Part shown: positions 1 to 6,330 of the stretch, piece by piece
How the letters are laid out: every line of letters starts with the position of its first letter
How positions within the stretch are numbered: position 1 is the first letter of the stretch
From: an uncultured Chloroflexia bacterium
GTDB taxonomy: Bacteria; Chloroflexota; Anaerolineae; JAAYZQ01
Reading direction: 5' to 3'
Length of the DNA stretch: 64,000 nt
Assembly: GCA_963700285.1 (NCBI GenBank)
Contig: CAVOXA010000010.1
Span: forward strand, 1,856,001-1,920,000
The notes under the pieces: generated by a model
Seen by the model: only the letters and a program-made list of their open reading frames with translations
The model's database searches: none
What the model was told of the DNA's origin: nothing
Program-made: the position numbers and the translations under genes

Positions 1-1
1 T

Positions 2-124
2 GCCCCAACGGAGCCGCCTCCCATAATCATGAAGATCGATAGACCGTTCATGTTTCTCATCCGTGACGTCAAGACGGGTACCATCCTCTTTGTTGGGCGC
101 GTCATGAATCCAGCCAGTGAATAG
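2..124 (+). CDS. Serpin (serine protease inhibitor), 3' end only
   Basis: Frame from base 2 reads APTEPPPIIMKIDRPFMFLIRDVKTGTILFVGRVMNPASE*, the serpin C-terminal signature (DRPFxFxI...ILFxGRVxNP). Confidence 0.9.
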   Translation, partial: APTEPPPIIMKIDRPFMFLIRDVKTGTILFVGRVMNPASE

Positions 125-398
125 GGGTTCTTTAGCAGGTTGAGGTATATCATGGCTGGAGCAACCTGTCCTGGCCGGATACTCCTAGTCAATCATCAGA
201 CAGAAAGCCATGGCTCGCGGGATGTGCTGGTTTGTTCACAACGTCGTCACCCGCCACGCATGGTCACCCTGGAGGTCAGAGGTTACCTCGAACCCCAACA
301 GAAGTGTAGTCTTGTTGCTATCCCCGCCCGTCTCCCCAGCCAATGAGACGCTATGCAAGCACAAGATGGGCAGTCAAGGCAAACTGATCTTTTGACTT

Positions 399-943
399 GT
401 GACCAGGTACATGAGTGCACCTGCTCCAACAGCATGGTCAGCCGCTACCAGAAGCGAGTTCCTTCGGCTTCACTCAGGACAAGCTCTGGGCCGTTGTTAG
501 ACCGCTTTGACATCCACATCGAGGTCCCCCGTGTGGAAGCCGGCTCAGAAGCCGGACGAAAAGCTCTCCGGCGACCGGTTGGGGGAGCCCTCGGCCCTGT
601 TGTCGCCGAGAACAGGCGTCATCCAGGGGCGGGTGGAGGCGGCGCGAGCGCGACAGCGCCAACGATTTGAGGGGACGAGCTTGCTATCCAATGCCGACGC
701 CCTTGCCAGGCAAGCGTTGGCGCGGCCGAGGTGCGCAACTTTTGCCAGGTAGACGAAGCCGGCCGGAATCTTCTGCGAGCGGCCATGCAGCAGCTCCACA
801 TGAGCGCCCGGGCCTACAGCGAACTCTGGGTTCGCCGCATCCTCAAGCTGTCCCGGACGATTGCTGACCTGGCCGGCAGCGACGCCATCGAAACGGCGCA
901 CCTGGCGGAGGCGATCCAGTACCGGCCGCGGCGGCAGGGCTGA
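399..943 (+). pseudogene. comM: comM/yifB (Mg-chelatase-like AAA+ ATPase) 3' relic, copy 1, interrupted by 5 short insertions
   Basis: Pieces across frames: HECTCSNSMVSRYQKR, SGPLLDRFDIHIEVPRVE, EKLSGDRLGEPS, RVEAARARQRQRF, MSARAY..RILKLSRTIADLAGSDAIETAHLAEAIQYR; no 5' half. Confidence 0.9.
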
Positions 944-1003
944 GGGCACGGAAACCTACACTGGCCGATATCTCTCTGACTGGATATACCGGGGGCAACA
1001 TAG

Positions 1004-2831
1004 GTGGACGATCAGGCTGTTGAGGCAAGACTGCGGCCCGGCTCGGAGCGGGTATTGGAGGCCGTAGCTTCCGGACGTTTCGCCGGATGGCTACCGTATT
1101 CCCTTCGGCTACAGGCCGAGCGGCTGGCCCTCGTCGCCGGCTTTGACGAGCTGGTCTGTCTGGATATGCTCAACTTTGCACCGTTTGACTATCAGATCCG
1201 AGCGGCCCAGATCGCGCTGCGCCGCTTCCGCGGCCGGGGCCTGCTGTGTGACGAGGTCGGCCTGGGCAAGACCATCGAGGCCGGCCTGGTGCTCAAAGAG
1301 TACCTGGTGCGCCAGATGGTCGGCCGCGTGCTGATCGTCACCCCGCCGGCGCTGGTTGAGCAGTGGCGAGAGGAGCTGAGCAGCAAGTTCGACCTGGCCG
1401 ACTTTGTCGACCAGCCACGATCCATCGTTCCGCGACCTGGGCCCGGAGGCGTGGGCCGCCTTTCCCCGCGTCATTGCCTCCCTGGCCACGGCTCGCCGTC
1501 CCGAACACCGCCGGGCGATCACCGACATCGTCTACGATCTGGTGATCGTGGACGAGGCACACCACCTGAAGAACCGCGCCAGTGTCTCCTGGAAGTTCGT
1601 CAACGCTCTCCAGAAAAAGTACATCCTGCTGCTCACGGCCACGCCGGTACAGAACAACCTGGACGAGCTGTACAATCTGATCACGATCCTCAAACCCGGC
1701 CAGCTCAAGACACCCCGCGAGTTCCGCCGCCAGTTCGTAGTGCGGGGCGACCCGCGGCTGCCCAAGAACCGGGGGCGGCTGCGCGAGCTGCTCGCCGACG
1801 TGATGGTGCGCCACGCGCGGGGACAGGTCGGTGTTCAACTCCCACCCCGCCGCGCCCACACCGTGCGCCTGCAATTGGCGGCCGGACGAACGGGCGCTCT
1901 ACGACGACGTGAGCCACTTTGTTCGACGCTGTATCGGCCTGTCGCCGGCCGCTGACAGCGGCCGGCCAGGTACCTGCCAACGGGCCGGAGGGGGCTGAAG
2001 CGGCGCTGCCGGCCGTCCACCGCTTCACCCTGCGCACGCTCCAACGGGAGATCGGCAGCTCTCCGGCCGCCGTCCGCCCGACCCTGCTGGCGCTGGCCGA
2101 GAAGCCGGCGCTGTCCTCCCAGCGCGAGGCGCTGCTGGGCCTGGCTGATCGCGCCGGCAGCCTCGCCTCCTGGACCAAGGGCCAGGCACTGGAGCGGCTC
2201 CTGCTCTCGAAACTGGCGGCCGACGGCCAGGAGAAGCTGATCATCTTCACCCACTTCCACGCCACTCTGGATCTGCTGGCAGACCTGCTGCGGGGAATGG
2301 GCGTGGACGTGGTGACTCTACCACGGCCGGCTCTCGCGAGCGGAGAAGGACGAGGCCATCCGCCGCTTCGAGCAAAGCGCCCAGGTGCTCCTCTCGACCG
2401 AGGCCGCCGGTGAGGGACGCAACCTTCAGTTCTGCCGCCTTGATGCTCAACTTTGACCTGCCCTGGAATCCGCAGCGCATCGAGCAGCGCGTCGGCCGCA
2501 TCCACCGCGTCGGCCAGACCCGCCCGGTGGAGATTTGGAACCTCTCGGCCGAGGGCACGATCGAGGACTATCTCCTGGAAGTGCTCGACCGCAAAGCTGA
2601 ACATGTTCGAACTGGTCATCGGCGAGATGGACATGATCCTGGGCCACCTGGAGGATGAGCGCGACTTTGAGGAGATCGTGCTGGATACCTGGGTCGCGGG
2701 CCCGAACGCCGGAGGAGGTGGCGGCTGGCTTTACCCGTCTGGGCGAGGCGTTGGCCCAGGCCCGGGATGCCTATCGGCGCACCCGCGAGTACGACGAGGC
2801 GTTGTTCGGAGAGGACTTGTCTACGCTATGA
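1004..2831 (+). CDS. SNF2/DEAD-H helicase (YqhH-like), split by several frameshifts
   Basis: LCDEVGLGKTIEAG (motif I), IVDEAHHLKN (II), LLLTATPVQNNLDELYNL (III), NFDLPWNPQRIEQRVGRIHRVGQ (V-VI); last frame ends EYDEALFGEDLSTL* at 2829-2831. Confidence 0.85.
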
Positions 2832-4649
2832 GTGAGCTGGCCGACTTTGTCGCTCAACGCTCTCCGCCAGGCAGGAGGTCTCGTCGATCCGCCGGCCTTT
2901 GATCAATACGACGTGCTTTTGCCTGAGGGGTCGCCCGCCGCTGGCAGGTGCCCGCCTTTCAGCGCCTGACCTTTGCCACCGAGACCCCGGAGGCCGGGAG
3001 CGACGGCGAACCGGTCACCGCCATAGGCTATGGCCACCCGCTGGTGGAGACGCCTGGTGGAGGAGATCCGCGCCGAGCCTGCCCGCATGCAGGCCTTTAT
3101 CAACAGCGTGCGGACCGACAAGCGCGGGCTGTTCTCGCTGGCCCGCCAGGCGCTGGCCTTCCCCAACGCCCGCCTCTCGCGAAGCGCCTCGCCAGAGCGA
3201 GGTCGTGGCGACCTGCCACTATGGCGCGCTTCAATTTCAAGGCCGCCCTGATCACCGATGAGAAGCGGGAGCAGTTGGTCTCGGTGGTGATGGACGTCCA
3301 GGCGGGTTTTGCCGTGCCCGAGCTGGCGCAATTGGAGCGGCTGGTGCGCCTGGAGGACGAGCCGGCGCCAGACTGGCACCTGCCTGCGCCGGTGCGCTGG
3401 CTGCCGGGGCAGACGCCCCTGAGCCGTCCGGTGCTGGACAGACTACTCGAGCGGGCCGTTGACGCTGCCATGCAGGAATTGGCAGCACCGTTGGGGGCAC
3501 TGCGCCATCGGGCTGCCCGCTACCTGGAACTGGATCGCGCCCGTCTCCACGAATATTACGACGACATCAGCCGTGACCTGAAGCGCCGCCTCGATCGCGC
3601 CGGCGACCTGCCTCAGGACCAGGCACAGCGCCGGGCTTCTCTGGAGGACAAGCTGGCCGCGACTGACGCAGAGCGGGAGGCCAAACTGGCCGACGTCGAG
3701 GCCAAGTATCGCCCAGAGGTGGAGCTGGAACTGATCAACCTCCAGGTAATCCACCAACCCAAGGTACTCCTGCCGGTGCACATTGGCACCCGCTCGACCA
3801 CCGTCGAGCGCACCGTCGTCTGGGACCCGCTGCTGCACCGCATTGAGCCGCTGGCATGCGACGTGTGCGGGCAGTCGGCGACGCGGCTGATGCTGTGCAG
3901 CGGTGGGCACCTGGCCCACGAGCACTGCCTGCTGCCTGAGCAGTGCGTAGATTGCAAGCGGGTCTACTGCCGCCTCTGCTCCGTTCGGATGGGCCGCTGT
4001 GCGGTATGCGAGCGCCCGGTGTGTGTCCCCAGCCTGAACCGCTGCGGTGAATGCGGACGGGCAACCTGTCGCGAACACGTCGGGCTGTGTCACGCCTCTG
4101 CCGGGCTCCCGGCACGCCCCTCTCCAACCCCTACCCCCGAGCCACCGAAGAAGGAGGAGGGGCTAGACATCCCACCCCCGGCTGCCCAGCCTGCGGTGAA
4201 GGAACAGCCCGTTGCGCCCAAGGGCAAGGCCCGCCAGACCGCCAGGCCCGCCCCGAAAACGAGACAGCGTCCCATCGCCAGGGCGCCGGCCAAGGTGACT
4301 CCCTCCAAGATCGAGGTGTACGTCGAATCTGAGGAGCCCGTGGTGAATGCTTTTGTGCTGACAAAGGGAGCCAAGCAGCTGGCGGTTCGCTCCTGGAAGT
4401 GGACCGGCCAGGCCATCGCGGTCACGTGCCTCTGCGAGTTGGGGTACGCTTGCCCGTTGAACGGGAGGCTGTTGGAGCCGGACAGATGCCGCCGGCGTCG
4501 AAGCGCAGATCAGGGCCCAGATCGAGGACCTGCGCCGGGACTATGGCATTTCCACGCGGCGGGTACTCTACTATGCTTTCGTCCATGGCGTGCCTCGGCA
4601 GGTACCACGCCTGACCCTCTCGGGCGAGTGGAAGGCGAAGCAGGAGTGA
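2828..4649 (+). CDS. YqhG-like helicase partner with coiled coil, Cys-rich Zn-finger cluster, Pro/Lys linker and C-terminal CxC..C domain (frameshifted)
   Basis: ATGA overlap with helicase stop; coiled coil RARLHEYYDDISRDLKRR; CDVC/CSGGH/CVDC/CRLC/CAVC/CGEC/CREH; after an indel near 4485 the frame continues to GEWKAKQE* at 4647-4649. Confidence 0.65.
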
Positions 4650-4730
4650 CCAGGCGTCGACCTTTGCCGAATTCCGTTGGCTCAAGCTCCGCCGCTACAT
4701 ATCGGGGTACCACGGGTGGAGGTTTAGTCA

Positions 4731-5155
4731 CTGGCGGACGACCGGCTGGGCGAGCCGTCGGTAGCGATCCGGGTGCGGGTAGAGGCGGCGCTGGAGCGCC
4801 AGCACCAGCGGTTTGAGGGTACGAGCCTGCTGTCAAATGCCGACGCGCTTACCAGGCAAGCGTCTGCGCGGCCGAGGTACGCAACTTTTGCCAGGTAGAC
4901 GATGTCGTGCCATACCCAGGCACGGGCGCCGGAACCTGCTGCGGGCGGCCATGCAGCAGCTCCACATGAGCGCCCGGGCCTACAACGAACTCTGGGTTCG
5001 CCGCATCCTCATGCTGTCCAGGACAATCGCCGACCCTTCGACAGACTCAGGGCAGGCCTGGCGGGCAGTGAGGGGATCGAGACGGCGCATCCTTCGACTT
5101 TGCTCAGGACAGGCCTGCGGAGGCGATCCAGTACCGGCCGCGACGGCAAACTTGA
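4731..5155 (+). pseudogene. comM: comM/yifB 3' relic, copy 2 (direct repeat of about 565-943), interrupted by 5 short insertions
   Basis: LADDRLGEPSVAIRVRVEAALERQHQRFEGTSLLSNAD...RNLLRAAMQQLHMSARAY...RTIAD...EAIQYRPRRQT*; long identical stretches with copy 1 (e.g. gcggccatgcagcagctccacatgagcgcccgggcctac). Confidence 0.9.
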
Positions 5156-5277
5156 GACACAGGGAGAGATGTGGTGAATGAGCCTGAGCCGTTGATGCGA
5201 CTTTGGCAGTAAAACTTGGAGCAATTGGCACCACGGACCCGCCTGCTGTTGGTGTTGTCGATGGGCCGGCGTTTGCC

Positions 5278-5946
5278 TCAGTCGATGGGAATGACGTCGG
5301 CGTAGGCAAACCCACCCCGCTGCACGACCTCCCCAATCTCGACCTCAATGCGTTTCTCAAACATCGGCCCAGCAACAACGATGGTGTGAATCTCTCCGTT
5401 CTCTCCACACGGGTCAACTCCCGGGGGAAGCTCCTTCAGCAGGTCGCGTGACCACCGGCGGCCCGCGAAACTCGCTGGTAGCTTTTTGAGATCCACACTG
5501 CTGATGTATGCTTCCAGATCGGCGGCGAGCATCTGTTCGGCCAACTCGACAGTGGGGATCTGCCACAGTGGAAAGAGGGGCTCAATCCCACTACCCGCGA
5601 GCTGTCCCTCACGGTACCGACGCACGTCCTCAAGAAACAGGTCGCCGAACGCAATGCACTCCGTCCCCATGGCTGCAGCCCCGGCAACAAACTCGCCCAT
5701 GAGCTCATCGGATCGCTCGATCGTGCAGGGATCTGGTAGATTGATCGTATGGAGCGCCAGGCCAGCTGCCTCCGCTTGCCGAGAAAGCAGCTCTGTTCTT
5801 GTCGAGTGCATGGACACGCGGTTGTACCGCTCGTTCACTACGCTGAACAATCCAACAACATCAACTGTGGGATCCAGTCGCAGGACGTACAGTGCCCAGG
5901 CACTATCCTTGCCGCTACTCCAACTCAGTAACGTTTTCTTTCTCAT
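5278..5946 (-). CDS. Adenine nucleotide alpha-hydrolase / diphthamide synthase-like PP-loop ATPase
   Basis: LSWSSGKDSAWAL PP-loop; IAFGDLFLEDVRRYRE; DPCGENGEIHT. Confidence 0.9.
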   Translation of the reverse strand: MRKKTLLSWSSGKDSAWALYVLRLDPTVDVVGLFSVVNERYNRVSMHSTRTELLSRQAEAAGLALHTINLPDPCTIERSDELMGEFVAGAAAMGTECIAFGDLFLEDVRRYREGQLAGSGIEPLFPLWQIPTVELAEQMLAADLEAYISSVDLKKLPASFAGRRWSRDLLKELPPGVDPCGENGEIHTIVVAGPMFEKRIEVEIGEVVQRGGFAYADVIPID

Positions 5947-6330
5947 GGTATTCTTTGTCGAACAGCCAAGCTCATCCACCAACACAGCTTGCCGCTAATC
6001 TATCCAGCAACGTGCCTCTTCACCACCAGCGTATCAAACAAGTGCTGAATCCCGCTGGGTGCGAGAATAAGGGCAGCACCTTCTCGCCGCAGCCTGATCA
6101 AGCCGCCTCCGTAGTCAACAGCCACCTGGTCGGTTGCCTGGATGGTGTCAAAGTCTTCACCGATCAGCAGATCGCTGACGCCGTTGGGGTACCGTGCCGT
6201 CCTGGCCTTGATGATAGGTCTCGCCCAGGAGGATCAGCCGAAAGTAGTCGAGGCAGTGCTCTGGGTTGACTGTAGTCAAAGGGATGGCGTGATCGGCTGC
6301 AGCTTGCTTCACAGGTGTTTCTCTCTGTGC

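Follow-up and report, generated by a model that had tools for sequence, protein, structure and literature searches.

The non-coding duplicate of the comM 3′ end that lies near the start of the window (the whole 64,000-nt stretch analyzed, G000:C10:1856001-1920000, where G000 is the source genome and C10 its contig) has probably collected very small mobile elements of 15-30 nt, similar to REPs and SDRs, that are selective for their sites, and patchy recombination is likely to have kept the flanks of these elements host-like. Such elements would collect in the relic, and intact comM would not tolerate them.

The single intact comM of G000 (C10:1852182-1853699), which encodes 505 amino acids, is located upstream of the window and ends 2.7 kb before the first relic. 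Three 3′ relics of comM are found in this genome, namely relic 1 (window 401-943), relic 2 (window 4696-5155) and relic C7 (C7:50120-50560), and the array on C10 is arranged on one strand, the forward strand of the window, in the order comM, serpin gene, relic 1, SNF2 and zinc-rich genes, relic 2. The serpin gene (PF00079), the 3′ end of which occupies positions 1-121, is the cargo between intact comM and relic 1. The second cargo (1004-4643), a small SNF2 ATPase gene and a zinc-rich gene, is 87.5% identical to a cassette behind comM in G020 and differs from it by 13 single-base indels, which are probably assembly errors; in G020, the pair is followed by Wadjet genes. Relic 1 comprises the last ~447 nt of comM through the stop codon, is frameshifted with an internal stop, and is 92% identical to intact comM when its inserts are excluded. 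Relic 2 carries five inserts (4845-4862, 4907-4927, 4984-5001, 5034-5056 and 5090-5113), the last two of which belong to the dispersed family A described below.

Related arrays were collected by a class-wide protein search of 401 genomes, 359 of which have comM; the 29 genomes with at least three protein matches were re-searched, extra copies were fetched and family members were added, so relic-rich genomes are over-represented in the sample. The cargo of the comM arrays includes haem synthesis genes, two-component systems, Wadjet genes and a RAMP cluster. At G327:C30:30400-41300 (L134), it consists of one RAMP-family gene, an EAD7 protein and six proteins without a Pfam match. The second comM copies at G398:C217 (L139) and G356:C188 (L100) extend past the usual junction on its upstream side and likewise contain many inserts. 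Small open reading frames of the "Mg-chelatase C-terminal" type in such genomes are likely to be relics rather than genes.

Pairwise and multiple alignments of relic 1 with the intact comM of the same genome reveal five net insertions of 24, 16, 21, 17 and 15 nt. Insert 1 (461-484) is a member of family A (CCTTCG-N4-7-CTCAGG), and the same site is filled in relic C7, G019 and G051. Insert 2 (538-555), in which 18 bases replace 2, forms a 6-bp hairpin and has same-site variants in relic C7, G051 and the metagenome contig L203, whereas insert 3 (596-616), also a 6-bp hairpin, is present as a single copy in G000. Insert 4 (698-714, or 693-721 with the flanks that extend its stem) has variants in relic 2, relic C7 and L203, and its site accepts family-B-like elements in G184, G076, G394, G398 and L164. 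Insert 5 (818-832, with a 6-bp hairpin at 819-835) is also found in relic 2; its site harbors longer-stem forms in L203 and in one contig of run X2, and an unrelated double hairpin in relic C7. The first-pass annotation had described insert 3 as absent from relic 2, which proved correct; inserts 4 and 5 do occur there, and inserts 1 and 2 and a variant of insert 4 occur in relic C7.

The same annotation had regarded all five inserts as hairpin or REP-like insertions. Four of the five do form hairpins of 6 bp or longer, but insert 1 is a genome-wide repeat that is not a canonical hairpin; the fold z-scores against shuffled sequences are -2.7, -2.7 and -2.3 for inserts 2, 4 and 5, a weak -1.3 for insert 3 and +0.95 for insert 1. 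No dispersed copies of inserts 2-5 were found in G000, and in 23 family genomes the pattern of insert 2 is no commoner than in controls; mobility of inserts 2-5 in their own right is therefore putative. A pattern like that of insert 5 is repeated in G250 (12 copies) and G146 (6 copies), of 301 genomes, and because in G250 it sits in the centre of a longer REP, its kinship to insert 5 is at most suggested.

The inserts are genuine additions to the relic. They are absent from the intact comM of G000, which had been named at first pass as the place where their presence would undo the claim, and from 49 intact comM C-termini of 47 genomes that are collinear at all five sites; a 50th sequence, a frameshifted second copy carrying a small insert, was set aside. 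Short-read contigs from public run X1, which may be kin of the source sample, match window 502-697 and 699-937 with zero mismatches and zero gaps and span inserts 2, 3 and 5 whole and most of insert 4, with insert 1 outside, so these inserts are not errors of a frameshift-rich assembly. The flanks of inserts 1 and 2 match the intact comM of the same genome at 80 of 81 bases, compared with 64/78 and 64/81 for relic C7, which has the same inserts. Because the flanks resemble those of the genome's own gene although the inserts are common to relic C7, either the inserts were acquired independently or the rewriting of the flanks took place in very short tracts.

Across the comM relics, 103 net insertions of at least 5 nt were cataloged. 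In the 58 relic segments (16.1 kb) that have a reference in their own genome, 44 insertions are found vs 11 deletions, each of at least 12 nt, a count confined to such segments and retaining the junction and loop zones. At least one insert is carried by 21 of the 58 segments, and 37 carry none; G000 is the richest genome, with 14 inserts in 1,123 bp of relic. For the hairpin, recurrence and segment counts, inserts that are shorter than 12 nt, upstream of nt 1060 or within the naturally variable loop at nt 1265-1300 were dropped, and for the first two counts near-identical repeats within a genome were also removed. The first-pass annotation had proposed examining whether insertion sites recur across genomes, and they do: 63 cross-genome pairs lie within 2 nt of each other (64 events in 19 genomes), compared with a null that averages 22 and does not exceed 48 in 2000, although related genomes inflate the observed figure. 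Unrelated elements occupy the same comM sites at nt 1304-1306, 1407-1410 and 1473-1487, and other sites hold variants of one element. The inserts show neither frame preference (21/24/26 for lengths modulo 3) nor strand bias (50 plus, 49 minus), and a perfect stem of at least 5 bp is present in 43 of 100 de-duplicated comM and metG inserts, as opposed to 23% in shuffles. Nesting is seen in G184, where inserts grow from 50 to 73, from 29 to 58 and from 24 to 112 nt. The relic of L203, the upstream end of which is as in this window, carries nine inserts over its whole length, among which inserts 2, 4 and 5, as well as the two that relic 2 has at nt ~1350 and ~1475, are represented by variants.

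Insert density is correlated neither with the family A load of the host (rho 0.14, n=23) nor with the divergence of the relic from its own gene (rho -0.03, n=43), and both were rejected as predictors on these values. Insert-free relics are found in G085, G356, G141 and G001 despite 204, 131, 96 and 46 family A copies, respectively. A plain neutral clock therefore fails, and bursts, travelling relics or homogenization of the flanks would be needed.

Family A, to which insert 1 belongs, has 67 copies in G000, compared with 0-3 in shuffles, and 4 of the 67 are located within 1.44 kb of comM relic. It is present in 24 of 28 genomes (reversed controls, 0) and occupies four sites in comM and several in metG, with both orientations represented. 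Outside REP-like contexts, 40 of 55 genome copies precede C followed by a pyrimidine. The outer pairs of the element covary (T-A 39/40, C-G 23/45), yet it has no canonical fold. Its core is also found in a REP-like doublet repeat of G000 that, unlike the inserts of relic 1, has the tag of REPs (GTAG or CGTC). RAYT/HUH or GIY-YIG genes flanked by the same hairpins, for which a search had been proposed at first pass, were not encountered among those examined: no family A copy lies within 3 kb of the four Y1/RAYT-like, two stand-alone GIY-YIG and two DUF559 genes examined, and the candidates with visible flanking repeats are flanked by repeats other than family A. At G000:C1:499289, C10:1675502, C17:8428 and C10:227032, long perfect REP-type hairpins form net insertions between paralogues, and one of these hairpins matches the repeat flanking a Y1 gene at C10:223250. 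REP-like units of 80-110 bp are repeated in long tandem arrays, with kinship from contig to contig, at G000:C22:208800-211200, 279600-280500 and 292500-293600, C7:157800-160000 and C10:1338000-1340000.

The insert phenomenon is not specific to comM, because 3′ relics of metG show the same pattern, nor is it general to all non-coding DNA. The metG-anchored array of G000 (C10:641545-642182, L127), like the family loci L143-L162, consists of intact metG, cargo and 3′ relics of ~770 bp, with up to 11 matches per genome. The G000 relic, 9 kb behind metG, has four inserts in 542 aligned bp, and of the 32 partial metG segments in the family, 15 have inserts of at least 9 nt, 32 in all, the sites of which recur in 10 cross-genome pairs (null 1.6, maximum 9). 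A reverse-transcriptase-like open reading frame, of the group II intron type by eye, is located just upstream of metG at G000:C10:652556-653725. In ordinary DNA, a 185-kb orthologous alignment of G000 and its congener G001 includes 14.9 kb of non-coding sequence, in which 7 indels of 12-120 nt were counted, with the additional bases on the G000 side in 3 cases; this control is of small size, is subject to selection and misses large indels where the alignment breaks. The 5 inserts in 447 bp of relic 1 are far above these 7 indels in either direction, and relic 1 and the insert-free orthologous relic of G001 are, among the matches listed, five inserts apart. Within the 3,675 bp of the SNF2 and zinc-rich genes aligned to the G020 orthologue, no inserts of at least 12 nt were found, in agreement with the earlier remark that the neighboring genes lack them. 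The accompanying proposal that some mechanism writes or retains hairpins specifically in this repeat is thus supported for the excess and, given the metG relics, not supported for the word "specifically". When G000 was compared with itself (2,460 alignments), the densest among the matches listed were, besides tandem repeat arrays, short repeats and a single pair of paralogues, the comM relics (all three) and the relic of metG. Tandem partial gene copies parted by cargo, some with small hairpin inserts, are also located at G000:C6:10600-22900 (L128) and C14:146-151 kb and 700-704 kb (L129, L130); the repeated genes presumably resemble a thioredoxin-domain protein and DUF1722/ybgA, and the loci are possibly two more gene-anchored arrays.

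In many families, among the matches listed, the relic starts at comM nt 1040-1050 (NPCPCG) behind a common foreign motif that ends in TTG(C/T)GAGTA(C/T), and metG relics start behind a conserved end motif that resembles it, again among the matches listed. Two nested junctions, ~80 bp apart, are found at window 265-412. The first (265-330) is a decayed element end with a junction of the comM nt ~1043 type, and relics of G001 (L126) and L203 have this upstream sequence in front of them as well; the second (397-412), a TTGTGA-type end joined to comM nt ~1069, is common to the orthologous relic of G001. Since this second end is of the metG type, the arrangement hints that a single recombinase family may act on both comM and metG. 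A junction scan of a species-genome collection returned 19 stretches, 18 of which are Chloroflexota records. A match of the junction pattern in Desulfoscipio has no comM match and was taken as chance. Two scans of viral contigs gave 0 matches to the junction motifs. Exact junction patterns also gave 0 matches within G000, because the local element ends have decayed.

The comM array has an intact target, a same-orientation 3′ fragment downstream, cargo between the two, and a fixed crossover position with a conserved element end. It thus bears the marks of an integration that restores the target gene and displaces a fragment of it, and the relic itself may well have originated by such an event, to judge from this arrangement of sequences. 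A cognate integrase is lacking inside the arrays examined. No PF07508 match was found in G000 or G001, no PF07508 or PF00589 match inside the arrays of G000, G134, G327 (C30) and G355 (C1), and no serine or tyrosine recombinase among 95 and 42 proteins neighboring arrays; recombinase matches in G355 (C3) and G388 (C13) are located 16-25 kb from relics. Island finders that require an integrase would overlook such arrays.

Formation of the array probably starts with integration events that would produce the observed series of gene, cargo, relic, cargo and relic in one orientation, with the conserved foreign end motif at the relic start. The relic would then be the old 3′ end of the host gene, replaced by a copy borne on the cargo, and the recombinase may have acted in trans or may since have been lost. 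Several unrelated families of mini-elements are seen to occupy a limited number of sites in the relics, family A mostly before C-pyrimidine, in both orientations, in two genes and sometimes nested within one another. Their insertion is possibly performed on single-stranded or recombining DNA by some enzyme, for which HUH/RAYT-like chemistry is the best guess. Finally, patchy recombination, both among relics and with the intact gene at a distance of 3 kb, would render the flanks host-like and leave the loops in place. If flanks are homogenized while loops persist, inserts would accumulate faster than substitutions. Against this explanation, no mobilizing enzyme was recognized among the Y1, GIY-YIG and DUF559 genes examined, and no recombinase in or beside the examined arrays. 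A bolder version, which we regard as doubtful, is that Chloroflexota possess an integrase-less cassette system in conserved protein genes (comM, metG), in which a recombination-coupled enzyme places hairpins of 15-30 nt, drawn from many families, at fixed sites, every 30-60 bases of the displaced ends, and thereby fixes the cargo.

It is unlikely, if worth serious consideration, that the sites were filled only once or a few times long ago and that the fragments have since travelled with their cargo by homologous recombination, their flanks being gene-converted and their hairpin loops escaping mismatch repair, so that site recurrence would reflect descent. Hairpin loops are able to escape mismatch repair; the literature search found no bacterial paper on such loops. 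Descent would account for the inserts that L203, with the upstream element end of this window, shares as variants with relics 1 and 2, for the 23 of 35 differences between relic 1 and intact comM that affect the third base of a codon, a pattern to be expected if the copy were coding and foreign, and for the independence of insert density from host repeat load, and both MutS and ComEC, which also count for the favored explanation, are present. However, the presence of unrelated elements at the same sites and the spread of family A over many sites, two genes and both orientations require repeated insertion, and conversion tracts would need to end within a few bases of the inserts. This explanation overlaps the flank recombination that forms the last step of the favored one. 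Quite improbable is the proposal that inserts are selected as a lock, in which they interrupt the direct repeat that relic and intact gene form, slow the loss of cargo and make most excisions damaging (lethal for metG), so that surviving relics are enriched in inserts. The far greater richness of relics than of ordinary non-coding DNA, the 4:1 ratio of insertions to deletions and the spread of the nine L203 inserts over the entire relic agree with it, but little would be gained, because perfect identity to intact comM extends over at most 54 nt in relic 1 vs 58 nt in the insert-free G001 relic; moreover, the 37 insert-free segments persist, and retention rather than origin or site choice would be explained.

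Formation of the hairpins in place, by polymerase template switching at fragile sites and with no mobile element, appears a little less credible still. Sequence beside the insertion site is copied and inverted in a few inserts (G280 and G298 at nt 1480; G280/G394 at nt 1377), the right flank of insert 4 is now complementary to its left flank, and direct flank matches are slightly above null (p=0.02), whereas inverted matches are not enriched (p=0.35) and inserts of families A and B copy sequences from elsewhere. Local templating is therefore at most a minor source of inserts. The first-pass annotation had suggested a possible function, with the hairpins as recognition sites comparable to attC or HUH substrates or with the relic as a structured non-coding element. 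Recurring sites, compensatory or G.T changes in some stems and the integrase-less cargo arrays would suit this idea, which we nevertheless consider very improbable: the G001 relic and most other relics are insert-free, the hairpins have no common motif, and the conserved junction is a non-hairpin motif that, among the matches listed, lies upstream of every relic hairpin. Nor is a structured RNA supported, since the whole of relic 1 folds no better than shuffles (z -0.39), an Rfam scan of window 1-6000 gave no match at E<=1, and strand bias is lacking. That the inserts are artefacts of an error-prone long-read genome might be suspected from the single-base frameshifts in many genes of the assembly (among the matches listed), but is refuted by the short-read contigs and by the filling of the same sites in other genomes.

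How repeats of 20-30 nt move is an old question, and empty and filled sites are rarely both in hand. With displaced gene ends, an intact copy lies close by for reference, and filled sites number in the dozens over a bacterial class; the rules of targeting, the ends of the elements and their nesting thus become directly readable, and tests of candidate enzymes become feasible. The recurrent gene-anchored cargo arrays at comM and metG are themselves of interest, with their unusually long replaced ends and no integrase found. A literature search, from which subscription papers were mostly excluded, returned no paper that deals with such arrays or with hairpin inserts in relics of comM or metG.

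Displaced target fragments are known from gene-restoring islands such as e14 with icdC. Islands of this kind leave displaced target fragments (Islander, PMC4383910), and in Dehalococcoides tandem ssrA islands occur, some without integration modules (PMC3146451). The present arrays resemble these in that an intact gene is followed by same-orientation 3′ fragments bounding tandem cargo, with a conserved junction motif; they differ in having protein genes as targets, displaced fragments that measure ~470 bp for comM and ~770 bp for metG instead of ~20 bp, and no integrase in the arrays examined. Elements that target comM are described as splitting the gene, both for large serine recombinases (PMC10083194) and for Tn6022 and Tsy (PMC10293859). 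The likeness lies in the choice of comM and in the position of its 3′ part downstream of the cargo; Tn6022 and Tsy split the gene near Walker B (nt 901-915 here), whereas here comM is whole (505 amino acids) with a junction at nt ~1043, and no recombinase, Tns or TnsF module was seen next to the comM junction in the arrays examined. Unlike in integron attC arrays, where each cassette boundary has one long imperfect hairpin with conserved R boxes and an IntI is present, the boundary is a non-hairpin motif, the hairpins are internal, variable and often absent, and no tyrosine recombinase lies near the array.

The inserts themselves are closer to small repeats of other bacteria. SDRs of Nostoc, which Elhai and colleagues are said to have described in 2008, are reportedly ~21-27 nt long and form several unrelated families with structure-conserving variation, nested copies and precise targets; we know of no enzyme for them. 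The inserts resemble them in small size, several unrelated families, nesting and choice of target. Family A, as a dispersed multi-copy element of ~20-30 nt, is SDR-like in this respect, inserts 2-5 in G000 are not, and empty and filled sites, a target preference and nesting are all observed. The phylum and the sequences are different, and here the elements sit in displaced gene ends, where comparison with an intact gene tells empty sites from filled ones. SDR5 of Nostoc inserts precisely into HIP1, as stated in PMC4390886. CGTC-tagged REPs are reported to lack a dedicated transposase, and REP/RPE inserts are reported inside genes (PMC3733652); the family A core is common to a REP-like doublet repeat of G000. 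Compared with REPs and REPINs (PMC3116915, PMC6006769), the relic inserts are single, shorter than REP doublets, mostly untagged and in several cases devoid of dispersed copies; the five inserts of relic 1 are single and untagged rather than inverted doublets with a GTAG or CGTC tag, and the four Y1 genes have no family A within 3 kb as a RAYT flanked by its own repeat would. The closest known kinds are the SDRs of Nostoc together with CGTC-type REPs that have no dedicated transposase.
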